A stretch of DNA of 64,000 bases. It comes from Candidatus Omnitrophota bacterium (lineage in GTDB: Bacteria; Omnitrophota; Gorgyraeia; Gygaellales; Profunditerraquicolaceae). The DNA lies in contig JAPLLX010000004.1 in assembly GCA_026387335.1 (NCBI GenBank), positions 255,045 to 319,044 of the forward strand, in the 5' to 3' direction. Made by a program: the position numbers and the translations under genes. Below the pieces are notes generated by a model that had not been told where the DNA came from, ran no database searches, and worked only from the letters and a program-made list of their open reading frames with translations. Shown here piece after piece: positions 4,189 to 31,830 of the stretch (positions are counted from its first letter, which is position 1; the number at the start of each line of letters is the position of its first letter).

Positions 4189-5202
4189 TTAGAATTGTTT
4201 CAAAAACCTGAGGTCATTCTCAAAAAATAATCTTATATCGTTGATACCGTATTTAAGCATGGCTATCCTTTCTACCCCCAGGCCAAAGGCAAACCCCGTA
4301 TATTTTTTAGCATCAATCCCCACATGTTTAAAAACATGCGGGTGGATCATGCCTGAACCCAGAATTTCCAGCCAGCCCTTTCTTCCGCAAACAGAACAAC
4401 CCTTACCTTTACAGATTATGCAGGATATATCTACTTCTGCCGAAGGCTCGGTAAAAGGGAAAAAGTGCGGGCGAAAACGCATATTTATGGTATTGCCAAA
4501 AATAGCCTTAGCGAATTTTTCCAAAACGCCCTTGAGGTCAGAAAACTTTATCCCCGCGTCTACCATAAAACCTTCTATCTGATGAAACATAAAAGAGTGC
4601 GAGGCGTCCACCGCGTCAGGCCTGTACACCCGGCCAGGGACCACTATCGCTAACGGCGGTTTACGCTCTTGCATCGCGCGCACCTGCACCGGAGAGGTAT
4701 GGCTGCGCAAAAGTAATTTAGCGTAATCTTTAAGGTAAAAAGTATCAAATGCCTCCCGGGAAGGATGTTCCAGCGGTATATTTAATCCGGTAAAATTATT
4801 ATATTCGGTTTCTATCTCCGGGCCGTCGACAATAGAAAAACCTAGGCGGCTGAATATGGAGCAGATTTCATCGGTTATTTGGGTAACCGGATGCAAGTGG
4901 CCTAAGCCTTGAGCAATGCCGGGCATGCCAATATCAAAAGAAGTGTAGGTTGTATTTTCGGATTGAACAGAAAGAGTCTTTTGCTTATCTTCAACTAGCG
5001 CCAGCAGCCTGTTCTTAAGCGAGTTAACCTGCTGGCCAAACGCGGCCCGTTCATCTTTAGATAAAGACGGTATGGTGCTGGTCAATTCGGCGATTACCCC
5101 TTTTCTTCCTAAATATTTCAGGCGGAATTCTTCCAGTCCTTCAGAGGAATGCACGCCCTGAATATCCAGGTCTATCTGGGTAGAAATAGCGTTAATATCC
5201 AT
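4189..5202 (-). CDS. pheS: phenylalanine--tRNA ligase alpha subunit
   Basis: Class II aaRS motifs (FRPHFFPFTEPS, GSGMIHP), 337 aa, pheS-pheT adjacency. Confidence 0.93.
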   Translation of the reverse strand: MDINAISTQIDLDIQGVHSSEGLEEFRLKYLGRKGVIAELTSTIPSLSKDERAAFGQQVNSLKNRLLALVEDKQKTLSVQSENTTYTSFDIGMPGIAQGLGHLHPVTQITDEICSIFSRLGFSIVDGPEIETEYNNFTGLNIPLEHPSREAFDTFYLKDYAKLLLRSHTSPVQVRAMQERKPPLAIVVPGRVYRPDAVDASHSFMFHQIEGFMVDAGIKFSDLKGVLEKFAKAIFGNTINMRFRPHFFPFTEPSAEVDISCIICKGKGCSVCGRKGWLEILGSGMIHPHVFKHVGIDAKKYTGFAFGLGVERIAMLKYGINDIRLFFENDLRFLKQF

Positions 5203-6383: not shown

Positions 6384-8117
6384 TTAAACAACTTTATCTT
6401 CTATTTCCTTTTTAGCCTTATTTATAAATTCATCCAGGCTCATTGTGCCCAGGTTCCCCTGGCCTTTTTTTCTTAACGCGACCGCGCCAGTTTTTTCCTC
6501 GCGCTCCCCCACCACCAGGCAATAAGGGACTTTGCTTAGCTCGGCATTGCGTATTCTTTTATCTAAGGTTTCATTGCGGCTATCTACTTCCACGCGGATA
6601 CCTTCAAGTTTGAGGGCTTGCTCTATTTTGGCGGCGTAATCCATCACCGTATCTTTAATCGGAATGACCAATACCTGCACCGGCGCCAGCCATAAAGGCA
6701 GATCCCCGTTATAATGCTCGACCAAGGCTCCCACAAAACGCTCCAGGCTCCCCAAGAGAACCCGGTGCAGCATTATTGGTTGCCGCTCTTTCCCTTCCTT
6801 ATCAATATAGGCTAAATTAAACCTCTTGGGAAGAGCAAAGTCGCATTGTATGGTGGCGCATTGCCAGGATCTTTTTAAGGCATCTTTTAATTTTATATCG
6901 ATCTTTGGCCCGTAAAAAGCTCCGTCCCCTTCATTAATATCATAGGCCAGGCCTTTTTCTTTCAGGGCCTCTTCCAGCGCTTGGGTCGCCAATTTCCAAT
7001 CTTCTTCTGAGCCGATATATTTTTCCGGCCGGGTGCTTAATTCAATGCTCACGTCATTGAACCCAAAGACTTTCATCGTCTCAAAAACAAAATCAATGAC
7101 TGCTTTTATCTCCGGCTTCAATTGCTCCGGCAAACAAAAAATATGGGCATCATCCTGGGTAAACCCGCGCACGCGTAAGAGCCCGTGTAAAACCCCGGCT
7201 TTTTCCCGGCGGTAAACTGTCCCCAACTCAAAATAGCGGATCGGTAAATCTTTGTAGCTTCTGGTCTTGGATTTATAAATTAAAATATGGCCCGGACAAT
7301 TCATCGGCTTTAAAACATATTCCTGTTCATCTACTTTGAGAGTAAACATATTATCTTTGTAGTAATCGTAGTGGCCGCTGGTCTTCCATAAGCCCGCCTG
7401 CATAATATGCGGAGTAATGACGATTGCGTAGCCGCGCTTAAGATGTTCTTTCCTTTCATAATCCTCAATAATAGTGCGTAAGAGCGCGCCTTTGGGATGA
7501 TAAAATACTAACCCCGCCCCTGCTTCTTCATGATAAATATCAAAGAGCTCTAAGCTAGGGCCCAATTTTCTATGGTCGCGTAATTTGGCTTCCTCTAAAT
7601 TCTTTAAATGCTCATCCAGTTCTTTTTTGCTCTCAAAACAAGTTCCGTAAATCCTCTGGAGCATCGGATTTGTTTCTATACCGTGCCAATACGCTCCGGC
7701 AACGGATAACAATTTAAAGGCCTTGATTCCTCCGGTGGACTCAATATGCGGGCCGCGGCATAGATCCAGGAAATCCTTACCTGTCCTATAAATTGAGACT
7801 TTTGTCTCGGGCAAGGCGTTGATTAACTCTATTTTATAAGGCTCATCCAGCTTCTTAAATAAATCTAAGGCTGACTTTTTATCCAGCTCTTCCCGGATAA
7901 ATGGCTCGTCTTTGGTGATGATTTCGGCCATCTTCTTTTCAATCCTGGCTAAATCCTCGTCGGTAAAAGCATCTTTTTTGTCAAAGTCATAGTAGAACCC
8001 GTCCTCTATCGCCGGCCCAATGGCTAACTTTACATCGGGCCAAAGCTCTTTGACAGCTTCTGCCATTACATGGGAACAAGAATGTCTTAAAATTTCCAAA
8101 TTCATTTTATCGTTCAT
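6384..8117 (-). CDS. thrS: threonine--tRNA ligase (short form lacking the N-terminal TGS/N1 domain)
   Basis: LEILRHSCSHVMAEAVKELWPDVKLAIGPAIEDGFYYDF and class II core. The ORF-track start (8165) overlaps tRNA-Val, so the start is placed at the internal ATG at 8117. Confidence 0.88.
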   Translation of the reverse strand: MNDKMNLEILRHSCSHVMAEAVKELWPDVKLAIGPAIEDGFYYDFDKKDAFTDEDLARIEKKMAEIITKDEPFIREELDKKSALDLFKKLDEPYKIELINALPETKVSIYRTGKDFLDLCRGPHIESTGGIKAFKLLSVAGAYWHGIETNPMLQRIYGTCFESKKELDEHLKNLEEAKLRDHRKLGPSLELFDIYHEEAGAGLVFYHPKGALLRTIIEDYERKEHLKRGYAIVITPHIMQAGLWKTSGHYDYYKDNMFTLKVDEQEYVLKPMNCPGHILIYKSKTRSYKDLPIRYFELGTVYRREKAGVLHGLLRVRGFTQDDAHIFCLPEQLKPEIKAVIDFVFETMKVFGFNDVSIELSTRPEKYIGSEEDWKLATQALEEALKEKGLAYDINEGDGAFYGPKIDIKLKDALKRSWQCATIQCDFALPKRFNLAYIDKEGKERQPIMLHRVLLGSLERFVGALVEHYNGDLPLWLAPVQVLVIPIKDTVMDYAAKIEQALKLEGIRVEVDSRNETLDKRIRNAELSKVPYCLVVGEREEKTGAVALRKKGQGNLGTMSLDEFINKAKKEIEDKVV

Positions 8118-8125
8118 TTTCTTAA

Positions 8126-8202
8126 TGGTGGGCTCAAGTGGACTCGAACCACCGACCTTCTCCATGTCAAGGAGACACTCTAACCAGCTGAGCTATGAGC
8201 CC
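8126..8202 (-). tRNA. tRNA-Val (anticodon GAC), CCA encoded
   Basis: Hand-folded cloverleaf: acceptor GGGCTCA/TGAGCCC, anticodon stem TCTCC-TTGACAT-GGAGA, T-arm GGTGG-TTCGAGT-CCACT. Confidence 0.85.
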
Positions 8203-8206
8203 TCAA

Positions 8207-8290
8207 TGCCGGGAGAGGGACTTGAACCCACAAGGTCTTGCGACCGCGAGATTTTAAGTCTCGTGCGTTTGCCAATTTCGCCATCCCGGC
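8207..8290 (-). tRNA. tRNA-Leu (anticodon TAA), long variable arm, CCA not encoded
   Basis: Acceptor GCCGGGA/TCCCGGC, anticodon stem-loop CGAGA-CTTAAAA-TCTCG, variable arm GGTCGCAAGACC, T-loop TTCAAGT. One T-T mismatch in the T-stem. Confidence 0.75.
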
Positions 8291-8296
8291 GCAATT

Positions 8297-8971
8297 TTAA
8301 TTAACAATCGTTTTGCTTTTACTCCAGCCCCTTGGAGCAATACAACAGTTATGTGCTATCTTTGATTTTCTTTCTAAACCAAATGCGCCCTTATAATAAC
8401 AGTTCTTTAAAATGCCCGCTGCGGCTAGTTTACCATATTTCAAAGTATACAATTGGTGTATCCTGTGAGGACCAAAATCAGAATGTATTCTTCCCTTGCA
8501 TCCAGTTAAGTCTTCTATGCGTGACTCAAGCCATTTAATAAAAACTTTAGAGCCAGAGAAAATACGCAATGACCACTGCTCATGGTTATTGCTTGGATGT
8601 ATCCAACGCCGCAAGCAGCCATCTCCATCTATTATGCCTCTTAAAAAATCATTAAAGAATTCTTCTGGAATACTGAGCTTTTTTAACTTTAATGATTTGT
8701 TGGGTAAAAGACCGACTGATAATAAAAACTCGTACAAATTCTTATTCGCTATCTGTATGCGATAGGCCTGGTTAACATTGCCTTTATTCTTAATACCTAT
8801 CTTATTCACTAAACCCATGGATATTATAATCTTTGCCAGAAATTGCTTATCTGCCGAAGTTATGTCTATGTGCCTACCATCCTTGGCTAGGCACCCATCT
8901 GTTGTAATCAATCCTACCAGATACCAAAGGTTCGGTCCTGAAATGTGTAATTCTTTTCTATGTGCCGGCAT
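8297..8971 (-). CDS. free-standing LAGLIDADG homing endonuclease (two-motif monomeric type)
   Basis: Two LAGLIDADG motifs, LVGLITTDGCL and LRGIIDGDGCL, about 100 aa apart; 224 aa. Sits 6 nt from tRNA-Leu and 12 nt from tRNA-Cys. Confidence 0.8.
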   Translation of the reverse strand: MPAHRKELHISGPNLWYLVGLITTDGCLAKDGRHIDITSADKQFLAKIIISMGLVNKIGIKNKGNVNQAYRIQIANKNLYEFLLSVGLLPNKSLKLKKLSIPEEFFNDFLRGIIDGDGCLRRWIHPSNNHEQWSLRIFSGSKVFIKWLESRIEDLTGCKGRIHSDFGPHRIHQLYTLKYGKLAAAGILKNCYYKGAFGLERKSKIAHNCCIAPRGWSKSKTIVN

Positions 8972-8983
8972 TTTAATATTCTA

Positions 8984-9054
8984 GGCGCGGAGCGGAATCG
9001 AACCGCTGAATAACTGTTTTGCAGACAGTCGCCTTTCCTCTTGGCTACCGCGCC
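8984..9054 (-). tRNA. tRNA-Cys (anticodon GCA)
   Basis: Acceptor GGCGCGG/CCGCGCC, anticodon stem-loop ACTGT-CTGCAAA-ACAGT, T-arm GCGG-TTCGATT-CCGC; 71 nt, no CCA. Confidence 0.8.
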
Positions 9055-9059
9055 AAAAA

Positions 9060-9602
9060 TTAAACCCTTAACTTTACCTCTTTTACTATTAAGTCGATCT
9101 CTGCCAAGCAGCCGACGCCCGTAGCACCGCAAGCCAGTTTTCCTTTTCGGGGCCCGATAAATTTATAACCTAATGATTTTAATTTTCCGATATTGGCCTG
9201 GGTAATCTTATTATTATACATATTTTCATTCATCGCCGGTGCGATTAACACGGGAGCTTTGGAGGCGCATATCACGCAAGTCAACAAATCATCGCAAATA
9301 CCGCAGGCGATTTTAGCGATAATATTGGCGGTTGCCGGAGCAATAAGAATTAGATCCGCCTTTGTAGCTAAAGAGATATGCTCAATATTCCAGGCCTGCG
9401 GGCCTGCAAATAATCCCCGGTAAACTTTATTCCCGGAAAGGCTCTCAAAGACAACCGGCCTTATAAGTTCTTCCGATTCCGGTGTCTGGATTACAGTAAC
9501 CGAGCAGCCTTCGTCTCTTAGCCGGCGGATTATATCGCAGGCTTTATAAATCGCGATACTGGCAGTTACGCCTAAAACAATATTTTTAACTTTTGCCGCC
9601 AT
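9060..9602 (-). CDS. coaC: phosphopantothenoylcysteine decarboxylase (flavoprotein CoaC domain only, no CoaB ligase domain)
   Basis: IVLGVTASIAIYKACDIIRRLRDEG...LILIAPATANIIAKIACGICDDLL...APAMNENMY matches the CoaBC N-terminal half; 180 aa. Confidence 0.85.
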   Translation of the reverse strand: MAAKVKNIVLGVTASIAIYKACDIIRRLRDEGCSVTVIQTPESEELIRPVVFESLSGNKVYRGLFAGPQAWNIEHISLATKADLILIAPATANIIAKIACGICDDLLTCVICASKAPVLIAPAMNENMYNNKITQANIGKLKSLGYKFIGPRKGKLACGATGVGCLAEIDLIVKEVKLRV

Positions 9603-9605
9603 AAA

Positions 9606-9815
9606 TTATTCTTTTCCTTTTATTTTTTTAGCTTCGATCTTGCCAGCGGAAATTTCATGCAAGGCAACAGTAGAAGGCTTAATATTCGCTTTGTCGTCTA
9701 CAAGTTTGGGCTGTCCTTCGGCTATTTCTAATGCCCTCTTGGCCGCTAAATTTACCAGCTTATAAATTGATTTTTCGCTTTTATCCAGCATCTTCTCTCT
9801 TTCCATGTATCCCAT
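9606..9815 (-). CDS. rpoZ: DNA-directed RNA polymerase subunit omega
   Basis: SIYKLVNLAAKRALEI core; 69 aa; gmk-rpoZ adjacency. Confidence 0.85.
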   Translation of the reverse strand: MGYMEREKMLDKSEKSIYKLVNLAAKRALEIAEGQPKLVDDKANIKPSTVALHEISAGKIEAKKIKGKE

Positions 9816-21433: not shown

Positions 21434-23866
21434 ATGTATACCCGCAACGAAAAAATAATTCCGGTTTATATTGAGGACGAAGTTAAAGACTCTTATTTGA
21501 ATTACGCGATGAGCGTTATCGTAGGCCGGGCCCTGCCGGATGTCCGCGATGGGTTAAAGCCCGTGCATCGCCGAATTCTTTATGCCATGCAAGATCTTAA
21601 CCTGGAACACTCTAAACCTTATAAGAAATGCGCGCGTATCGTCGGTGAAACCATGGGTAAGTATCATCCGCATGGCGATGTGGCTATCTATGATACCCTG
21701 GTGCGTATGGCGCAGGATTTTTCTTTGCGTTACCCCTTAGTCGATGGTCAGGGCAACTTTGGTTCGGTTGATGGAGACGCAGCCGCGGCGATGCGTTATA
21801 CCGAGGCGCGCCTGGCCGCGGTTTCTGAAGAGATGCTCGGTGATATTGAAAAAGAAACCGTTAATTTTGGCCCGAACTTTGACTCTTCTTTAAAGGAGCC
21901 GTTACTTTTACCAGCGAGTTTACCGAATCTGTTAGTGAACGGTTCAAGCGGTATTGCCGTAGGCATGGCCACCAATATACCGCCGCATAATTTAAATGAA
22001 GTTTGCGACGCTATTATTTATCTACTGGATCATCCCGAGGCAGAGATTAAGGACCTGATGCGTTATATCAAGGGGCCGGATTTTCCTACCGGAGGGTTAA
22101 TCTGCGGCAAGGCGGGGATTAAAGACGCGTATACTACCGGAAGAGGCAAGTTACTCATACGTTCCCGGGCAACCGTAGAGCATCAAAAGAATGGCAAAGA
22201 TTTAATTATTATTACTGAAATTCCTTACCAGGCGCAGAAATCCGGGCTTATTGAAGCTATCGCGGCTTTGGTCGATGATAAAAAAATTGAAGGCATATCG
22301 GATATCCGCGATGAATCGGATAAGGACGGTATGCGCATTGTGGTTGAGCTTAAGCGCGATATTGAATCCCAGATTGTCTTGAATCAACTTTTTAAACATA
22401 CCCAGCTGGAAACTACCTTTGGCATTATTATGCTGGCCTTGGTGGATAACCGGCCCAAGGTGTTAAATCTACGCCAGGTCTTAGATTGTTATATCGAGCA
22501 TCGTAAGATTGTGATCCGCCGGCGCACCCAGTTTGAATTAGACAAGGCTTTAAGGAGGGCGCATATTTTAGAAGGTCTCAAGATAGCCCTTAAATTTATT
22601 GACCGGATTATTAAGGTAATCAAAACATCAAAGAGCGTGGAAGCGGCCAAAGTAAATTTAATGAAGGAGTTTGAGCTTTCGGAGTTGCAGTCGCAGGCGA
22701 TTCTGGAAATGCAGTTGCAGCGCTTAACCGCCTTAGAGCGCGATAAAATTGACGCGGAGTATGCCGAGCTTTTAAAGAAAATCGAGATCTGCCGGTCGAT
22801 TTTAGCTTCGGAGAAAAAAATCGAAGGGATCATTAAGGAAGAGCTGGAGAATTTAAAGAAAAAATACGGCGATGAAAGGCGTACGGATATAGTGGGTGAA
22901 GCAGAGGAGTTAGAGGTAGAGGATTTAATTGCCGAAGAGGACGTGGTGGTGACGATCAGCCACGGCGGTTACATTAAGCGGCTTCCCGTAGGTTCATACC
23001 GCAAGCAAAAACGCGGGGGCACCGGGGCAACCGGAGCGGAGTTAAAAGAGGAAGATTTTAGCGAGCATCTTTTTGTGGCTTCCACCAAAGATTACCTTTT
23101 GATTTTTACGGACAAGGGGCAGGTGCATTGGTTAAAGGTTTATGAGATACCCCAAGCTAGTCGCGTTTCTAAGGGGAAGGCTATTGTGAATCTGGTGCAG
23201 ATGGAGCAGGTAGCGAAAATCAGTTCTACTATCCCGGTCAAAGATTTTTCACCGGATAAATATTTGGTCATGGTGACTAAACTCGGGCAAATCAAGAAAA
23301 CTAAGTTAGAGGCTTATGGTAATCCGCGTAAAGGCGGGATTATCGGGATTACCCTGGATAAGGATGATGCTTTGATCGGCGTCGAAATGACCGACGGTAA
23401 GCAAGAATTACTGATCGGGACCCGGCAGGGCAAAGCGGTGAGATTTTCCGAAGAGAACGTGCGCGATATGGGTAGAGGCGCGCACGGGGTACGCGCGATA
23501 TCTCTGGGTAAAAAGGACGAAGTTATTGATATGGTTGTCCCCCAAAAAGATTCCACTATCCTTACAGTGACTAGTTTAGGCTTTGCCAAGCGCACAACTA
23601 TAGACGAATATCGTTTAACCAGCCGCGGCGGCAAAGGCGTGATTAACATTAAAGTCACCGCTAAGAATGGCGAGGCAGTAAATTTAAAAAGTGTAAATGA
23701 TAATGATGAGCTGATGGTCATTACCCAAAATGGTATATTTTTACGCTGCGCGATAAAAGATATCCGAGAAACCGGGCGCTCTGCCCAAGGCGTACGCCTG
23801 ATAAAGCTGCAGGCTAAAGACCGGGTTGCCTGTGTTGCTCCGGTAATTGCCGAAGAGGAAGAATAA
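21434..23866 (+). CDS. gyrA: DNA gyrase subunit A
   Basis: [28 protein letters not shown], active-site region, C-terminal beta-pinwheel repeats; 810 aa. Confidence 0.95.
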
Positions 23867-23872
23867 CCTTAC

Positions 23873-23947
23873 GACCCCGTCGTCTAGCCTGGTCTAGGAC
23901 AAGAGCTTTTCAAGCTCTCGACACGGGTTCAAATCCCGTCGGGGTCA
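23873..23947 (+). tRNA. tRNA-Glu (anticodon TTC)
   Basis: Acceptor GACCCCG/CGGGGTC, anticodon stem-loop AGAGC-TTTTCAA-GCTCT, T-arm ACGGG-TTCAAAT-CCCGT. Confidence 0.85.
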
Positions 23948-23957
23948 CTGAATAATT

Positions 23958-25796
23958 ATGTGCGGAATAGTCGGATACGTCGGAGAGAGGGAAGCTCAGG
24001 GTATTTTGTTAAGCGGCCTGAAGCGCCTAGAATACCGTGGTTACGACTCAAGCGGTATCGCCGTAATTAACTCTAAGAAAAGCGCCATATCCTTAAGAAA
24101 ATCTCCCGGCAAAATCAGCGCGTTAGAAAGGTTAGTCAAAGCCAGGCCCTTATCCGGCACTGTTGGTATAGCCCATACCCGTTGGGCGACGCACGGCGCT
24201 CCCACCCAGCCTAATGCCCATCCCCACCAGGATTGTCAAGGCGAGATCGCCCTGGTGCATAACGGGATTATTGAGAATTTTGAGATCCTCAAAAACCGCC
24301 TGATTAAAGAAGGCCATACCTTCCGCAGCCAGACAGACACCGAAGTAATCGTCCATTTAATCGAAAAGTTTTATAAGAATATTCCGCTGGAAGAAGCAGT
24401 GCGGCGCAGCCTTAAACTACTGGTGGGTTCTTTCGCCATCGGGGTTATTTCATCAAGAGAACCGGGAAAGTTAGTCGGAGCGCGTTCCGGCAGCCCTTTA
24501 ATTTTAGGTTTAGGTAAGAATGAGAATTTTCTCGCTTCGGATGCGCCCGCGGTTTTAGAGTCAACCAAAGAAATTGTCTTTCTAGATGAAAACGAAGTAG
24601 TGGTTTTAACCAAGGAGGGCTTTCAGGTTACGGATCTGGAAGGCAGGCCAAGCGCTAAAAAATCCGTACGCATTAATTGGGATATTACCCAGGCTCAGAA
24701 AAACGGCTTTGCGCATTTTATGTTGAAAGAAATCAATGAGCAGCCGAAAATCCTGGAAAGCCTGATAAATTCCAGGATCAACAGGGAATCCGGCAAGATA
24801 GATTTTGAAGAACAAAACATCCCTGAAGAAAAGCTTAAAAATATCAAAAATATATTTATCGTCGCCTGCGGCACAGCGTATCACGCCGGTTTGGTGGGAA
24901 AGTATGTTTTAGAATCCCTCTGCGCTATCCCGACACAGATAGACGTTTCCAGCGAATTCCGCTATCGCGAACTTTTAATCGGTCCGGATACCCTGGTTAT
25001 GGCCATAAGTCAGTCCGGAGAGACCGCGGATACCCTGGCCGGGGTAAGGGAGGCCAAAAAACACGGCGCCAGCGTAATCTCTATCTGCAATGTTTTAGGT
25101 TCGACTTTGACCCGCGAATCCGACGGTATAATTTATACGCACGCCGGCCCGGAAATCGGGGTGGCCTCGACCAAGGCTTATACCGCCCAGTTAACCGCCC
25201 TGTATTTATTCGCTTTTTATCTTGCCGGTATCAGAAACGTTCTTCCCTCGGCTAAAATCAGGAAATACCTGGATGACCTGCGCAAAATTCCCCACCAGCA
25301 GGAGTTAATTCTGAAAGAGCAAAATAATATTGCCAGGCTGGCTCGAAAACATTCGCATTTGGGCTCATTTTTGTATTTGGGTAGGAACATTAATTATCCT
25401 TCAGCCCTGGAAGGAGCGCTTAAACTGAAAGAGATCTCTTATATCCCCGCTGAAGGCTATGCCGCCGGAGAGATGAAGCATGGGCCCATTGCCTTAATTG
25501 ATGAGTACCGGGCGGTAGTTTGTATTGCTCCTGCCTCTAAAGTTTATGAAAAGATGGTCTCTAATATCCAGGAGATCCGCTCCCGGCACGGAAAAATTAT
25601 CGCTATTGCCAGCGTAGGGGACAAAGAAATTACGGAGTTAACCAAAGAAGTCATTTATATCCCTAAGTCCGAAGAATTATTCTCTCCTCTTTTAGTGGCT
25701 TTTCCCCTGCAGTTGATAGCTTACCACATTGCCGTAAAACGCGGCTGCGACGTGGACCAGCCGCGCAATTTAGCTAAGTCCGTAACCGTTGAGTAA
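23958..25796 (+). CDS. glmS: glutamine--fructose-6-phosphate aminotransferase
   Basis: N-terminal MCGIVGY, two SIS domains, C-terminal ...NLAKSVTVE; 612 aa. Confidence 0.95.
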   Translation: MCGIVGYVGEREAQGILLSGLKRLEYRGYDSSGIAVINSKKSAISLRKSPGKISALERLVKARPLSGTVGIAHTRWATHGAPTQPNAHPHQDCQGEIALVHNGIIENFEILKNRLIKEGHTFRSQTDTEVIVHLIEKFYKNIPLEEAVRRSLKLLVGSFAIGVISSREPGKLVGARSGSPLILGLGKNENFLASDAPAVLESTKEIVFLDENEVVVLTKEGFQVTDLEGRPSAKKSVRINWDITQAQKNGFAHFMLKEINEQPKILESLINSRINRESGKIDFEEQNIPEEKLKNIKNIFIVACGTAYHAGLVGKYVLESLCAIPTQIDVSSEFRYRELLIGPDTLVMAISQSGETADTLAGVREAKKHGASVISICNVLGSTLTRESDGIIYTHAGPEIGVASTKAYTAQLTALYLFAFYLAGIRNVLPSAKIRKYLDDLRKIPHQQELILKEQNNIARLARKHSHLGSFLYLGRNINYPSALEGALKLKEISYIPAEGYAAGEMKHGPIALIDEYRAVVCIAPASKVYEKMVSNIQEIRSRHGKIIAIASVGDKEITELTKEVIYIPKSEELFSPLLVAFPLQLIAYHIAVKRGCDVDQPRNLAKSVTVE

Positions 25797-28187: not shown

Positions 28188-29448
28188 GGGCGGCAGAGTA
28201 GTCGACCCGGCGAATAAAATTGATGCGCTAATGGATATATTAGTGGAAGATTCTAAGATATCCAAAGTAGCTAAAAATATTCAAGGCGCAGCGGATAAGA
28301 TAATTGATGCGTCGGGCAAAATTGTTCTGCCGGGACTTGTAGATATGCATGTGCATTTGCGGGAGCCGGGCAGGGAAGATAAAGAAACAATCTGCAGCGG
28401 CTCAAAGGCTGCTTTAGCCGGCGGAGTGACTAGTGTCCTGGCCATGCCCAATACCTCTCCGGCAATAGACTCAAAAGAAAATATTAAAATTATAAAAACA
28501 GCTATCCAAAAAAGCGCCAAGGCCAATTGTTTCATCTGCGCCGCTATTACTAAAGGAAGGCTAGGAGAAGAGTTAAGCGATTTCGCCAGCCTTAAAAAAG
28601 AAGGCGCGATTGCCCTCTCTGATGACGGCTCGTCGGTAGATAAGGACGCCCTTATGCTGGAGGCGTTTAAGCAAGCCAAAAAAGAGGATATTCTGGTAAT
28701 CTGCCATAGCGAAGATAAAAAGCTGGCAGCTGGCGGGGTAGTAAATTTAGGTTTTACTTCTACGCGTCTGGGGTTGCGCGGCATATCAACCGAGTCAGAA
28801 TATAAAAGGGTTGAGCGCGACATAAGGTTAGCTAAAGAAACCGGCGCCAGGGTGCATATTGCCCACGTAAGCTGCCAAGAATCGCTGGAAATTATTGCCC
28901 GGGCCAAAAAAAATAAGGTCAGGGTTACCTGCGAGAGTGCGCCGCATTATTTTACTTTTAATGAAGAAGCGGTCTTAGGTTATGATCCTAATTTTAAAAT
29001 GAACCCGCCGCTACGCTCTAAAGAGGATATGTTGGCTATCCGTAAAGGTTTGGCCGACGGTTTAATAGACGTGATCGCCTCAGATCACGCTCCGCATACT
29101 GAAAATGAAAAGGATATTGAGTTTGAACGCGCGGAATGCGGGGTAATCGGCTTAGAAACCGAATTAGCCGCAGCTATCACAGAGTTGATAGGCAATAACT
29201 TATTGGACTGGAGTAAACTGGTCCTCAAAATGTCGTTAAATCCCAGCCGGATTTTAGGCCTGAATAAAGGGACATTAAGCGTCGGCGCTGACGCGGATAT
29301 TATAGTAGTTGACCCTGAAAGAGAATGGGTAGTAAAAAAAGAAAATTTCTATTCCAAGTCTAAAAACTCATCTTTTATCGGCCGTTCGCTTAAGGGTTTT
29401 GTAGAATACACGCTTTGCCAAGGTAAGGTGCACAAATGGAATTCATAG
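28171..29448 (+). CDS. pyrC: dihydroorotase
   Basis: LPGLVDMHVHLREPG metal-binding motif, DHAPH; 425 aa. Confidence 0.9.
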   Translation: MKTLIKGGRVVDPANKIDALMDILVEDSKISKVAKNIQGAADKIIDASGKIVLPGLVDMHVHLREPGREDKETICSGSKAALAGGVTSVLAMPNTSPAIDSKENIKIIKTAIQKSAKANCFICAAITKGRLGEELSDFASLKKEGAIALSDDGSSVDKDALMLEAFKQAKKEDILVICHSEDKKLAAGGVVNLGFTSTRLGLRGISTESEYKRVERDIRLAKETGARVHIAHVSCQESLEIIARAKKNKVRVTCESAPHYFTFNEEAVLGYDPNFKMNPPLRSKEDMLAIRKGLADGLIDVIASDHAPHTENEKDIEFERAECGVIGLETELAAAITELIGNNLLDWSKLVLKMSLNPSRILGLNKGTLSVGADADIIVVDPEREWVVKKENFYSKSKNSSFIGRSLKGFVEYTLCQGKVHKWNS

Positions 29449-31757
29449 CCGATTTTCATGTCCATTCTAAATACTCGCGGGCTACCAGCCGCAATATGGA
29501 TGTCAAGAATTTAAGCGAATGGGCGAAGTTAAAAGGAATCACCCTTATAGGCACGGGAGATTTTACGCATCATTTGTGGCTGGAAGAACTAAAACACACC
29601 TTAGAAGATTGCGGGAATGGGTTATACCAGCATAATGGGGTCTATTTTATCCTGACTGCCGAGGTAAGCAGCATATATTCCAAAAAAAATAAAACCTACC
29701 GCATACACAATGTCATCATCGCTCCATCATTTAAAACCGTGGATAAAATAAATGACAAACTCGGCCGGCTGGGCAACCTGGCCAGCGACGGAAGGCCTAT
29801 CTTAGGGCTGGATGCCGCAGAACTGGCGCGGATTGTCTTTGGTATTGATGAAAACTGTATACTTGTCCCCGGGCATATCTGGACGCCCTGGTTTTCCCTC
29901 TTTGGCTCTATGTCAGGGTTTGACAGGATAGAAGATTGCTTTGAAGAGCAGACACCGAAAATATTTGCTTTGGAAACGGGCCTGTCTTGTTATGATGAAA
30001 AAACAGAGGTTTTAACTGAAAATGGCTGGAAGAAGTTCCCTGAAGTCAGCTATTCCGATAAAATTTGCACTTTGAATATTAAGACCGATAGAATTGAATT
30101 TCAAATTCCGCAAAGAATTTCTAATTATATTTATAAAGGGAAAATGTATAAACTCAGAACTAAAAGAGTAGATTTATTGGTAACCCCTAATCATAAGCTA
30201 CTATATAGCCCCTGCGATTTTAGAAACCGTAAGCCTTATTCTTTGAAAGAAGCAGAAAAGTTATTTAATAAATCCAAAATATTGAAAAAAGACGGTATCT
30301 GGATTGGAGAGAAACCAAAATATTTTACACTACCCGAAGTTAAAATGCAGCATGGTAGTAGATATTATTCCGGATTTCGTAATAAAAAAGAAAATCGCTT
30401 ACCTCTAAAACCCTGGCTAAAGTTTTTTGGTTTCTGGCTTGCAGAGGGCTGGACTAGCGAAGGCAAAGAGGGTGATTACAACGTTTGTGTATGTAACAAT
30501 GATGAAAATTTACTTAATGAAATGAAACAACTTCTTGAGTGCTTCGGTTATAAAGCTTATAAACGAGGTAACTTGGTTCGGGTGAGAGATTTTCAGTTAT
30601 TTCATTATTTAAGACAGTTTGGTAAATGTTATGATAAATTTATTCCATTGAATATTAAATCTCTCTCGAAAGAATTGTTAGAGATTCTATTACAATACTA
30701 TATTAAAGGGGACGGGCATATTTACGGAAGATCTGGAAAGGGTTTATCGGCAACAACCACCTCAATTCGTTTGCGTGACGATTTACAGGAGATAGCCCTA
30801 AAAATAGGGATTTCTGCGTATTACAAATTAGGCCAGAAAAAAGGTACCCCATTTTCTTCGCCCAGCACAAAAAAGATATACAAACAAAGAAACGATGCCT
30901 GGATTATTTATTTTATAAGGCGGAATAAACCAATAATTTTACCCTCAACAATAAAAAAACATAATTATACAGAAAAATGGGTAGATTACGAAGGATGGGT
31001 TTTCTGCGTTACTGTTCCTAATCATGTAATTTATATTCGCAGAAACGGTATTCCTCTTTGGTGCGGTAATTCCGACCCAGCAATGAATTGGCGCTTGAGC
31101 GCTTTAGATAAGTTTACCTTAATTTCCAATAGTGATGCACATTCACCGCAAAAAATTGGACGTGAGGGCAATGTCTTTGACTGCGAGCTTGATTATAAAA
31201 CAATAAGAGAAGTTTTAAAGACAAAAGATAAGAAACGGTTTTTATACACCATAGAGTTTTTCCCGGAAGAGGGGAAGTATCATTTTGACGGGCACCGGCT
31301 TTGCGGTATCCGTTGGTCGCCGAAGGAAACAAAAGAACACGCTGGCAAGTGCCCAAAATGCGGTAAGCCGGTTACTGTCGGGGTAGTGAACCGTGTAGAA
31401 AAATTAGCCGATAGGCCGCAAGGTTTTAAGCCCGAGAACGCCATACCTTTTAAACATTTAATACCTTTGGATGAAATAATCGCCGATGCCAAAGGCGTAG
31501 GCAAAACCAGTGTTGCGGTAGAAAGAGATTACCGGAGTTGCCTGAGTAAATTTGGGACAGAGTTTGAAATCCTGATGGCTGCTCCCAAGCAGGATCTGCT
31601 TAAAGGTTTACCTCCTAAAGTTGCGGAGGGGGTTCTAAGAGTACGTGAAGGTAAAGTCGATATTCAGGCTGGCTACGATGGCGAATATGGAATAATCTCT
31701 ATCTTTGGGAAGGAAGAGCCTGGCCAGAAAAACGAAGAACAATTGAGTTTATTTTAA
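29436..31757 (+). CDS. endonuclease Q (EndoQ-like PHP-domain DNA nuclease) interrupted by an intein. Host protein is residues 1-184 plus 546-773 (412 aa).
   Basis: N-extein DFHVHSKYSRATS...LIGTGDFTHHLW...ETGLS; C-extein SDPAMNWR...LISNSDAHSP...CGIRWSPKETKEHAGKCPKCG (Zn-ribbon), as in archaeal EndoQ; 773 aa in total. Confidence 0.8.
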   Translation: MEFIADFHVHSKYSRATSRNMDVKNLSEWAKLKGITLIGTGDFTHHLWLEELKHTLEDCGNGLYQHNGVYFILTAEVSSIYSKKNKTYRIHNVIIAPSFKTVDKINDKLGRLGNLASDGRPILGLDAAELARIVFGIDENCILVPGHIWTPWFSLFGSMSGFDRIEDCFEEQTPKIFALETGLSCYDEKTEVLTENGWKKFPEVSYSDKICTLNIKTDRIEFQIPQRISNYIYKGKMYKLRTKRVDLLVTPNHKLLYSPCDFRNRKPYSLKEAEKLFNKSKILKKDGIWIGEKPKYFTLPEVKMQHGSRYYSGFRNKKENRLPLKPWLKFFGFWLAEGWTSEGKEGDYNVCVCNNDENLLNEMKQLLECFGYKAYKRGNLVRVRDFQLFHYLRQFGKCYDKFIPLNIKSLSKELLEILLQYYIKGDGHIYGRSGKGLSATTTSIRLRDDLQEIALKIGISAYYKLGQKKGTPFSSPSTKKIYKQRNDAWIIYFIRRNKPIILPSTIKKHNYTEKWVDYEGWVFCVTVPNHVIYIRRNGIPLWCGNSDPAMNWRLSALDKFTLISNSDAHSPQKIGREGNVFDCELDYKTIREVLKTKDKKRFLYTIEFFPEEGKYHFDGHRLCGIRWSPKETKEHAGKCPKCGKPVTVGVVNRVEKLADRPQGFKPENAIPFKHLIPLDEIIADAKGVGKTSVAVERDYRSCLSKFGTEFEILMAAPKQDLLKGLPPKVAEGVLRVREGKVDIQAGYDGEYGIISIFGKEEPGQKNEEQLSLF
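29988..31070 (+). mobile_element. intein (361 aa) with LAGLIDADG homing-endonuclease domain, inserted in the EndoQ ETGLS|SDP motif
   Basis: Block A CYDEKTEVLTENGW, block B VTPNHKLLY, DOD motifs FFGFWLAEGWTS and LLQYYIKGDGHIYG, block G VFCVTVPNHVIYIRRNGIPLWCGN followed by +1 Ser. Removing it restores a contiguous EndoQ motif. Confidence 0.8.
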
Positions 31758-31758
31758 C

Positions 31759-31830
31759 GCGCCTGTGGCCCAACGGATAGGGCGCCAGCCTCCGGAGCTG
31801 GATGTGACAGTTCAATTCTGTCCAGGCGCA
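31759..31830 (+). tRNA. tRNA-Arg (anticodon CCG)
   Basis: Acceptor GCGCCTG/CAGGCGC, anticodon stem-loop CCAGC-CTCCGGA-GCTGG, T-arm GACAG-TTCAATT-CTGTC; starts 2 nt after the EndoQ stop. Confidence 0.85.

Follow-up and report, generated by a model that had tools for sequence, protein, structure and literature searches.

How does an open reading frame for a 224-aa protein come to lie between two tRNA genes of a tRNA-thrS operon in an Omnitrophota chromosome? In the window (the whole 64,000-nucleotide stretch of DNA analysed), the gene order on the minus strand is tRNA-Cys(GCA), the open reading frame, tRNA-Leu(UAA), tRNA-Val(GAC) and thrS, and the locus is made up of the following parts:

8983 to 9054, minus strand: tRNA-Cys(GCA), upstream neighbour of the endonuclease gene (ARAGORN; Rfam tRNA, 65.3 bits)
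8972 to 8982, minus strand: A/T-rich leader AGAATATTAAA, 11 nt, from the tRNA-Cys 3' end to the ATG (sequence)
8297 to 8971, minus strand: putative LAGLIDADG endonuclease open reading frame, 224 aa plus stop codon, ATG start (open reading frame list, Pfam PF14528, PDB, AlphaFold2, Foldseek)
8894 to 8920, minus strand: LAGLIDADG motif 1, LVGLITTDG, residues 18-26; Asp25 is predicted to be catalytic
8618 to 8644, minus strand: LAGLIDADG motif 2, LRGIIDGDG, residues 110-118; Asp117 is predicted to be catalytic
8291 to 8296, minus strand: spacer AATTGC, 6 nt, from the stop codon to the 5' end of tRNA-Leu (sequence, ARAGORN, open reading frame list)
8207 to 8290, minus strand: tRNA-Leu(UAA), 'GCCGGGA' allele type (ARAGORN; Rfam, 58 bits)
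8126 to 8202, minus strand: tRNA-Val(GAC), last gene within the diverged tract (ARAGORN, Rfam)
8125 to 9050, minus strand: putative replacement (co-conversion) tract of ~930 bp, comprising tRNA-Cys, the endonuclease gene, tRNA-Leu and tRNA-Val (sliding nucleotide identity against the relative L130)

Organisation and expression of the locus

The first-pass annotation had placed a 224-aa frame between two co-oriented tRNA genes of the tRNA-thrS operon, and this arrangement was confirmed by ARAGORN, Rfam and the open reading frame list. The three tRNAs are complete, each spanning positions 1-71 of the 71 in the Rfam tRNA model at 58-68 bits, and thrS starts 8-20 nt after tRNA-Val(GAC). The gaps flanking the gene had been given as 12 and 6 nt; the 6-nt gap (8291-8296) was correct but the upstream gap is 11 nt (8972-8982), and only 17 nt of the tRNA-Cys/tRNA-Leu spacer are non-coding. 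Across the endonuclease family the stop codon precedes the tRNA by a median of ~9 nt, and in about one fifth of the copies no stop codon occurs ahead of the tRNA.

A consensus scan of the minus strand from 9602 to 8100 found neither a sigma-70-like promoter nor an intrinsic terminator, in agreement with the earlier statement that the gene has none of its own, although this is weak evidence, since the sigma-70 consensus may not suit Omnitrophota. A Shine-Dalgarno-like motif was not found in the 11-nt leader. Such motifs precede only 15 of 37 long open reading frames in the window and occur in 15 of 60 leaders of the endonuclease family, so that their absence here is not unusual and the analysis is uninformative. 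Expression from the tRNA precursor would fit the close spacing of the genes and the lack of promoter and terminator matches. The endonuclease gene would be transcribed within a coaBC-tRNA-thrS precursor without a promoter of its own, and an mRNA with the 11-nt leader would be set free by tRNA end-processing.

The encoded protein and its predicted fold

The 224-aa protein matches Pfam LAGLIDADG_3 (PF14528) with E=3.6e-8 and 34 bits, against a cut-off of 22.5. Its best sequence match in the PDB is 2dch (I-Tsp061I; E=2.8e-9), and 1mow was also matched. Motif 1 aligns with LCGLIAADG of I-Tsp061I and LLGLIWGDG of I-DmoI, and motif 2 with IIGFIDGDG of I-Tsp061I. The AlphaFold2 model (pLDDT 85.4, pTM 0.85) consists of two repeats of a helix, four strands and helices, and shows the pseudo-dimeric alpha-beta-beta-alpha-beta-beta-alpha fold. 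The top Foldseek match is I-Tsp061I (E=3e-12, TM 0.66/0.72), and the matches listed all have the LAGLIDADG fold, among them endonucleases, inteins containing homing endonucleases, one maturase and WhiA. A weak NCBIfam match to an intein-containing RNA polymerase subunit was set aside as spurious.

With 465 homologues found, 146 cluster representatives at E<=1e-30 (the endonuclease family) and dN/dS of 0.06-0.28 (0.09-0.11 against the nearest homologues), the open reading frame is not a product of chance but an intact gene subject to purifying selection. D25 and D117 are invariant in the 30 homologues aligned. The catalytic acidic residues, whose loss the first-pass annotation had recognised as fatal to its reading, are therefore retained, and its description of a double-motif LAGLIDADG protein is upheld by the sequence, the predicted fold and both conserved Asp residues. 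The protein is predicted to be a single-chain, two-motif LAGLIDADG homing endonuclease capable of cleavage.

A second LAGLIDADG domain lies elsewhere in the window, in a 773-aa open reading frame (29436-31757) that matches TIGR00375, an intein N-terminal region and LAGLIDADG_3. Its similarity to the 224-aa protein is at the level of the motifs only (BLASTP E=0.029 over 55 aa). The proposal that the window holds two independent homing endonuclease lineages is fair by this pairwise measure, but both proteins fall within Pfam LAGLIDADG_3.

A fixed site across phyla

The insertion site was surveyed in 80 species genomes that carry the endonuclease family, from Omnitrophota, Patescibacteria and MAGs labelled Elusimicrobia and Armatimonadota; all sequences compared were metagenome assemblies. 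Directly downstream of the endonuclease gene is tRNA-Leu(UAA) in 78 of the 80 loci, the exceptions being one contig end and one locus, L059, whose tRNA-Leu has a group I intron. The upstream neighbour varies (tRNA-Cys in 67, tRNA-Val in 4, tRNA-Thr in 1, none in 6), which identifies the downstream tRNA as the constant partner. In the E. coli glyW-cysT-leuZ operon, Cys(GCA) and Leu(UAA) are separated by 12 nt; the Gly-Cys-Leu(UAA) tRNA operon is ancient, and its Cys/Leu(UAA) junction has been kept from E. coli to Omnitrophota. A sister LAGLIDADG family is always found 5' of tRNA-Cys, in six different contexts. A phage origin of the endonuclease gene was also considered and was dropped, as a scan of viral contigs found no relative.

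Empty sites and remnants

Occupancy was determined in a thrS-anchored sample of 65 informative Omnitrophota loci, unbiased for the presence of the endonuclease. Five loci hold the full gene, two a contig-truncated gene and three a remnant (L131, L116 and L115) in which only the 3' end of the gene is kept. Empty Cys-Leu spacers in this sample range from 0 to 321 nt. The site is also empty in the nearest relative of the window genome, L130, whose thrS is 98% identical and whose Cys-Leu spacer is 15 nt. The empty junction (L130:4271-4350) reads:

5'-GGTTCGAATCCGCTCGTCGCCT ATAGGATAAGCATCG GGGCAAGTGGTGGAATGGCATACACGACAGACTTAAAATCTG-3'

This junction is the candidate substrate of the enzyme, whose class cuts DNA site-specifically at targets of 18-22 bp. 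The tRNA-Cys/tRNA-Leu spacer of related genomes, where the first-pass annotation had expected an empty homing target, is thus empty in L130 and in 55 of the 65 loci (85%), with 7 occupied and 3 bearing remnants. An empty site in the closest relative, together with occupation of the same junction in several phyla, argues that the endonuclease gene in the window is a real, recently acquired homing element.

Probable replacement tracts and horizontal exchange

Sliding nucleotide identity between the window and L130 is 95-100% in both flanks, and the sequences are diverged across tRNA-Cys, tRNA-Leu and tRNA-Val. The coaBC-like gene just upstream is 95-100% identical and tRNA-Cys ~80%; tRNA-Leu is 55-72% and tRNA-Val ~75-85% identical, and identity returns to ~100% at ~8120. 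Among relatives that carry the endonuclease, the nearest are L164 and L161; they match the window at 85-95% identity in the gene but at only 70-85% in the backbone. From these comparisons we infer that the ~930-bp tract came from a diverged donor into an L130-like backbone.

Exchange at the locus recurs across the family. In the pair L089/L094, thrS, tRNA-Val and tRNA-Cys are identical while the endonuclease gene and tRNA-Leu have been replaced, and in L056/L087 the breakpoint falls within tRNA-Leu. L001 and L008 have endonuclease genes of 95-97% identity set in flanks of only 75-85% identity, and L001 and L006 are 91% identical in host genes and 68% in the endonuclease. Overall, endonuclease distances correlate with host distances at r=0.50, whereas each host gene correlates with the remaining host genes at 0.69-0.89. 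In any one pair, mosaicism could be an artefact of chimeric assembly at conserved tRNAs, but it is seen in three independent pairs. Incongruent distances, the fixed site, sporadic occupancy and the empty site of L130 all support the free-standing homing endonuclease that the first-pass annotation had proposed.

The tRNA-Leu types differ in the samples, 'GCCG' prevailing among carriers by 48 to 20 and 'GGGC' among empty loci by 47 to 12, and tRNA-Leu is among the replaced genes in all three near-isogenic pairs (window/L130, L089/L094 and L056/L087). Partial Mantel tests revealed no long-term linkage of tRNA-Leu and endonuclease distances, and at depth tRNA-Leu tracks neither the endonuclease nor the host. 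Moreover, in the occupied loci L022/L086, L031 and L041 the 5' half of tRNA-Leu resembles its counterpart in empty alleles. A tight cassette of endonuclease and tRNA-Leu was rejected because of the lack of linkage and these 'empty-type' carriers, and for the same reasons only variable co-conversion is claimed.

Proposed mechanism of homing

The open reading frame probably encodes a selfish LAGLIDADG homing endonuclease; this free-standing gene would have reached the Omnitrophota chromosome by horizontal transfer and homologous replacement, and would be neither a host gene nor an intron open reading frame nor an intein. The spacer 5' of tRNA-Leu is unconserved in empty alleles, in contrast to the strongly conserved first 27 nt of tRNA-Leu. 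Since the latter is the only conserved sequence beside the insertion point, the homing site would lie mainly in the 5' part of tRNA-Leu(UAA). A fixed target spanning the tRNA-Cys 3' and tRNA-Leu 5' ends was judged unlikely on account of the 0-321-nt range of empty spacers and the varying upstream neighbour. We propose a model whereby the enzyme would make a double-strand break at this site in alleles lacking the endonuclease, and repair from an endonuclease-bearing donor would copy the gene along with variable lengths of the flanking tRNA genes, a form of intronless homing as in SegB. The occupied allele would be protected by replacement of the upstream half-site through the insertion and/or by differences in the co-converted tRNA-Leu; a resistant tRNA allele cannot be the general protection mechanism, as L022/L086, L031 and L041 carry an empty-like tRNA-Leu 5' half. 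Homing is inferred here from population patterns, which ordinary recombination of transformed DNA could also yield.

Alternative explanations

It is exceedingly improbable that the endonuclease is encoded by an intron (of group I or archaeal type, in tRNA-Leu or tRNA-Cys) or an intein, and for the window locus this reading is refuted. It draws on the location of the closest solved relatives, I-Tsp061I and I-DmoI, in archaeal rRNA introns, on the standing of tRNA-Leu(UAA) as a classic group I intron host and on the group I intron in tRNA-Leu of L059; the L059 intron, however, lies downstream of the endonuclease open reading frame and does not contain it. In the window, Rfam gave no match to a group I or other intron at E<=1 between 7500 and 9700, and both tRNAs flanking the gene are uninterrupted according to ARAGORN and Rfam. 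The 224-aa frame encodes an endonuclease domain only, with its own ATG and no flanking extein. The first-pass annotation had put the gene outside any intron or intein, which these results and the 17 nt of non-coding spacer bear out, and the unrecognised intron in tRNA-Leu that it had allowed for was not found in what is a complete tRNA.

Several features favour a domesticated host protein with a cellular role, for example in expression or processing of the tRNA operon, inherited vertically with that operon in Omnitrophota and Patescibacteria: the protein is 55-66% identical and of uniform length (219-226 aa) across many Omnitrophota, the synteny ndk-yicC-gmk-rpoZ-coaBC-tRNAs-thrS is strict, endonuclease divergence is comparable to that of gmk and yicC, and dN/dS is low. 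These data, however, come from a sample chosen for gene presence, and the phylum-wide conserved host gene suggested by the first homologue and synteny data is an ascertainment bias, as shown by the thrS-anchored sample, in which the gene is missing from most loci, the 98%-identical L130 included. The existence of remnants, a phylogeny incongruent with that of the host, the mosaic structure of the gene and the retention of catalytic Asp residues, unlike in WhiA or pure maturases, also argue against domestication, which we consider very unlikely and which the empty sites have already largely refuted. A second possibility is that the endonuclease once homed but is now inactive in the window lineage, its spread being due to DNA uptake followed by ordinary recombination at the tRNA operon and not to breaks induced by the endonuclease. 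The activity of the enzyme is predicted from sequence, breakpoints fall in conserved tRNA segments and the 3' segment of the open reading frame, as plain homologous recombination predicts, and at depth tRNA alleles shuffle independently of the endonuclease. Against this stand the invariant catalytic residues, dN/dS values that stay within 0.06-0.28 even between recently exchanged copies, the identical position across phyla and operon contexts and the parallel sister family at the tRNA-Cys flank. Such constraint, a fixed position and a parallel family would be hard to keep without selection for site-specific cleavage, and passive spread is accordingly regarded as unlikely.

Relation to known systems

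The window protein resembles I-Tsp061I and I-DmoI (PDB 2dch, 2vs7) in being a monomer of ~200-220 aa with two LAGLIDADG motifs, each with an acidic catalytic residue, and in sharing the same predicted fold. These enzymes are only ~20% identical to it; their genes lie within archaeal rRNA introns and their targets are rRNA genes, whereas the window endonuclease is bacterial and lies free between tRNA genes, with no intron. WhiA is not known to have catalytic acidic residues; it carries an extra HTH domain and is vertically conserved. This domesticated regulator (DUF199; PDB 3hyi) is, like the window protein, bacterial and chromosomal and has the same fold (Foldseek E=2.8e-8), but the window protein keeps both Asp residues, has no added domain and is sporadically distributed. 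Free-standing LAGLIDADG open reading frames of fungal mitochondria are intergenic, often lie near tRNA genes and show presence/absence polymorphism. Some of the literature matches were of this fungal mitochondrial type, which is organellar, occupies varied sites and frequently degenerates, in contrast to the one defined site of the window family across bacterial phyla.

The closest functional counterpart is SegB of phage T4, a homing endonuclease of the GIY-YIG type whose free-standing gene lies in the tRNA gene cluster of the phage. Its recognition site is reported to include a conserved tRNA motif, and SegB is reported to drive the preferred inheritance of itself and the surrounding tRNA genes (PMC2330249). 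The window element is likewise free-standing among tRNA genes and appears to have replaced flanking tRNA genes with itself; it differs in belonging to the LAGLIDADG rather than the GIY-YIG nuclease superfamily, in residing in a bacterial chromosome rather than a phage, and in that homing, shown by experiment for SegB, is putative here. LAGLIDADG enzymes are also found in insertions of 16S and 23S rRNA genes of CPR/Patescibacteria (PMC11270868). Both these enzymes and the window family take advantage of highly conserved RNA genes, in similar ultrasmall bacteria; the window family differs in sitting at a tRNA junction and not within a gene, and a term search showed that 'tRNA' and 'free-standing' do not occur in the text of PMC11270868.

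Implications

In the literature, no paper was found that joins LAGLIDADG with Omnitrophica, and none that describes the present endonuclease family at its tRNA junction. The window element belongs to a known general type of homing element and sits at a target without earlier description, and it leaves the current understanding of how homing works unchanged. Tentatively, the window endonuclease and the tRNA-Cys sister family might together form an undescribed class of chromosomal bacterial homing endonucleases, each specific for the 5' region of a single, universally conserved tRNA gene in the ancient Gly-Cys-Leu(UAA) operon. This specificity would allow passage between phyla and make the enzymes natural gene drives, which would overwrite essential tRNA alleles time and again in the ultrasmall Omnitrophota and Patescibacteria; their mRNAs would be carved from tRNA precursors by RNase P and 3' processing. 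With compact monomeric scaffolds and predictable natural substrates, the 146 clusters of the family and the sister family are candidate meganucleases.

From invasion and co-conversion to decay and loss, the locus would offer a clean natural example in bacterial chromosomes of a homing life cycle known until now chiefly from organelles, phages and rRNA introns, and it points to the tRNA-Cys/tRNA-Leu(UAA) junction as a cross-phylum landing site. By implication, a selfish element can exchange essential tRNA genes as it inserts itself, which would matter for tRNA allele diversity and wherever tRNA loci serve to mark strains or phylogenetic groups in metagenomes.

The endonuclease gene and its surroundings

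On the minus strand of the window, the spacer between tRNA-Cys and tRNA-Leu is occupied by a single ORF; the window's other LAGLIDADG domain lies on the plus strand.

LAGLIDADG genes of the window and neighbouring features
9602..9060, minus: coaBC-like flavoprotein gene (Pfam Flavoprotein)
9054..8983, minus: tRNA-Cys(GCA) (Rfam tRNA, full model 1-71/71)
8971..8297, minus: LAGLIDADG ORF, 224 aa, ATG start, 11 nt after tRNA-Cys
8290..8207, minus: tRNA-Leu(UAA), 6 nt after the ORF (Rfam full model 1-71/71)
8202..8126, minus: tRNA-Val(GAC), 4 nt after tRNA-Leu (Rfam full model 1-71/71)
Next after tRNA-Val, minus: thrS (gene order)
29436-31757, plus: 773-aa ORF, TIGR00375 (EndoQ-like)

The 224-aa ORF contains the motifs LVGLITTDG and LRGIIDGDG, matches Pfam LAGLIDADG_3 above threshold, and finds I-Tsp061I (2dch, E=2.8e-9) and the I-DmoI half of 1mow in the PDB; family members are already named "LAGLIDADG family homing endonuclease" in public annotation. 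AlphaFold2 with 30 homologues gave a confident model (pLDDT 85.4, pTM 0.85), for which Foldseek returned I-Tsp061I first (E=3e-12), then inteins, I-AniI, I-OnuI and I-DmoI. Motifs, Pfam match, and sequence and fold matches to I-Tsp061I all agree with the two-motif protein described in the first-pass annotation, and in structure the protein is a monomeric LAGLIDADG enzyme of the I-Tsp061I/I-DmoI type. The loss of catalytic Asp that would speak against such an enzyme was not seen: D25 and D117 show no variation in the alignment of 30 homologues. The downstream gap is as first proposed, while the upstream one is one nucleotide off. The three full-model tRNAs, and the lack of any Rfam intron family at E<=1 in window 7500-9700, bear out the claim that no intron surrounds the gene. 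The EndoQ-like ORF, with an intein N-terminal splicing block at residues 185-256 and LAGLIDADG_3 at ~330-470, resembles the 224-aa endonuclease at the motif level only, as had been claimed.

Distribution of full, remnant and empty sites

A search with the window endonuclease retrieved 465 proteins of 219-226 aa, 55-66% identical to the query; those with an annotated source were all named Omnitrophota. A genome-collection scan matched 187 species genomes, and 80 of these were retrieved and examined. Essentially all 80 have the gene in the spacer that separates tRNA-Cys(GCA) from tRNA-Leu(UAA), in the same orientation as both, and in Omnitrophota carriers it sits inside a conserved ndk-yicC-gmk-rpoZ-coaBC-tRNAs-thrS block, with a divergence resembling that of gmk or yicC in these gene-selected loci. 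Synteny and divergence at first suggested a vertically inherited, domesticated gene; this appearance is misleading because the loci had been chosen for carrying it.

An unbiased sample was obtained by a metagenome scan anchored on thrS (80 loci, thrS 63-98% identical to that of the window), with enough upstream sequence at 65 loci. The endonuclease is full-length in five of the 65, cut by the contig end in two, and reduced to a 3'-end remnant adjoining tRNA-Leu in three (42 aa in L131, E=3e-16; 34 aa in L116, E=6e-10; about 17 nt in L115). The remaining 55 sites are empty, with 0-321 nt between the upstream tRNA (tRNA-Cys in 51, tRNA-Val in 4) and tRNA-Leu. Empty Cys-Leu sites, which the first-pass annotation expected in related genomes, therefore exist, including in L130, the window's nearest relative. 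This pattern matches the cycle of invasion, decay and loss expected of a homing element. In one species genome (L077:1475-2002), a copy truncated to 175 aa, with a 158-nt gap before tRNA-Leu, is probably decaying. No relatives were found in a scan of viral contigs.

Replacement tracts and horizontal exchange

The 476-kb L130 contig encodes proteins 95-100% identical to those of the window (thrS 98%, gmk 98.5%, rpoZ 100%, coaBC 95%), and its site reads tRNA-Cys, 15 nt, tRNA-Leu. At the nucleotide level, L130 matches the window at 95-100% until the first bases of tRNA-Cys are reached, and from about 8120 on the two are as close again; for the shared tRNAs in between, identity drops to about 80% for tRNA-Cys, 55-72% for tRNA-Leu and 75-85% for tRNA-Val. 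This diverged tRNA block between near-identical flanks points to a foreign segment of ~930 bp, comprising tRNA-Cys, the endonuclease gene, tRNA-Leu and tRNA-Val, within a backbone like that of L130. The most similar endonuclease genes, in L164 (89% aa) and L161 (86% aa), share the synteny, and both backbones diverge more from the window than the endonuclease gene does. Two further near-isogenic pairs repeat the replacement with different tract ends: between L089 and L094, thrS and tRNA-Val are identical and tRNA-Cys differs by one indel, with the endonuclease gene and tRNA-Leu replaced, and the breakpoint between L056 and L087 falls mid tRNA-Leu.

Across 29 Omnitrophota loci, endonuclease and concatenated host-protein distances correlate at r=0.50; for each host protein against the remaining ones the value is 0.69-0.89. 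L001 and L006 have host proteins 91% identical and endonucleases 68% identical; L001 and L008 share endonuclease DNA at 95-97% identity with flanks at only 75-85%. In this pair the exchange covers ~500 nt at the 5' end of the ORF, and its final ~150 nt are backbone-like. The protein is kept functional, since dN/dS is 0.06-0.28 in all pairs with dS estimable. Patescibacteria endonucleases form their own clade (53-64% identical among themselves) and the copies in MAGs that bear an Armatimonadota or Elusimicrobia label are closest to those of Omnitrophota; between-phylum transfer is therefore rare and old, and within-phylum spread more frequent. The comparative evidence that the endonuclease is mobile is clear.

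What defines the site

tRNA-Leu(UAA) lies directly downstream in 78 of 80 loci (median gap about 9 nt); the exceptions are one contig end and L059, whose tRNA-Leu(UAA) is intron-split. The upstream neighbour varies among the 80 (tRNA-Cys 67, tRNA-Val 4, tRNA-Thr 1, none 6), and the downstream tRNA-Leu(UAA) gene is the sole constant of the site. The L059 group I intron (4669-4960; MAG 'bacterium SKS1.bin41'; Rfam Intron_gpI RF00028, 74.5 bits, E=1e-18) occupies the anticodon loop and was missed by ARAGORN; the endonuclease ORF lies upstream of tRNA-Leu, outside the intron. In cyanobacteria, a group I intron likewise splits tRNA-Leu(UAA) at the anticodon loop.

Among empty alleles, sequence conservation is absent from the spacer preceding tRNA-Leu and almost complete over the first 27 nt of the tRNA itself; we infer a recognition site that would be made mainly of the tRNA gene's 5' part. 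The glyW-cysT-leuZ cluster of E. coli has the same Gly-Cys-Leu(UAA) order, with a Cys-Leu distance of 12 nt, which marks the junction as an ancient landing site that is widely shared. A variant tRNA-Leu as the sole protection of occupied alleles was ruled out, because some carriers share the tRNA-Leu 5' half with empty alleles and because tRNA and endonuclease distances do not go together at deeper divergence.

Omnitrophota tRNA-Leu(UAA) genes (L001-L160) come in two strongly divergent allele types, one with a GCCGGG.. acceptor stem and one with GGGCA[AG]G.., spread without regard to host relatedness; the former prevails in endonuclease carriers (48 vs 20) and the latter in empty loci (47 vs 12). 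In longer Cys-Leu spacers (L123:819-1139, L116:3360-3545, L140:3911-3995, L031:2888-2988), short palindromic units recur, such as AAATTTTGCGACAAGCAAAATT then GGCACT[CA]AAGCGAGCG; they may represent a small repeat element or a structured RNA.

A sister LAGLIDADG family, for which 757 homologues score E<=1e-10, shares 29-30% identity with the window protein and lies directly 5' of tRNA-Cys(GCA) in 6/6 contexts examined (L090:3537-4226, L091 and L166-L169), one of them between tRNA-Gly(GCC) and tRNA-Cys. It behaves like the window family, at the neighbouring junction. Its ORF often extends into the tRNA.

Relation to known systems

The closest functional parallel described is phage T4 SegB, a free-standing endonuclease encoded among tRNA genes. 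A conserved tRNA motif forms part of its site, and SegB drives the inheritance of the tRNA genes around it (PMC2330249); SegB is, however, a GIY-YIG nuclease, unlike the LAGLIDADG enzyme of the window. For Patescibacteria, published work on LAGLIDADG enzymes concerns insertions in rRNA genes (PMC11270868); a term search of that paper for 'tRNA' and 'free-standing' gave no match, and a literature search found no published description of this tRNA-junction endonuclease family. The original reading as a free-standing homing endonuclease is supported: the gene belongs to this known kind, with putative cleavage activity and a new target locus.

Probable expression from the tRNA operon

In keeping with the claim that the gene has no promoter or terminator of its own, no such match was found in the tRNA/endonuclease cluster on the minus strand, using a sigma-70 consensus that may not be the host's. 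Given this and the tiny gaps, the simplest reading is that the gene would be transcribed together with the operon, as predicted, and its message freed by tRNA processing. Operon-embedded tRNAs are common in this window; examples besides the tRNA-thrS cluster are:

23873-23948: tRNA-Glu(UUC), flanked by gyrA (ending at 23866) and a glmS-like gene (starting at 23958)
31759-31830: tRNA-Arg(CCG), starting 2 nt past the stop codon of the EndoQ-like ORF

Tight packing of tRNAs within protein-coding operons appears to be a general trait of this genome. About one in five family ORFs (~20%) have no stop codon before tRNA-Leu. In L020:4001-4777, checked directly, the frame continues through tRNA-Leu into tRNA-Val; further stopless copies are in L005, L007, L013, L025, L035, L037, L039, L041, L048, L051 and L057. 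Should RNase P cleave the precursor, such stopless copies would be non-stop mRNAs.
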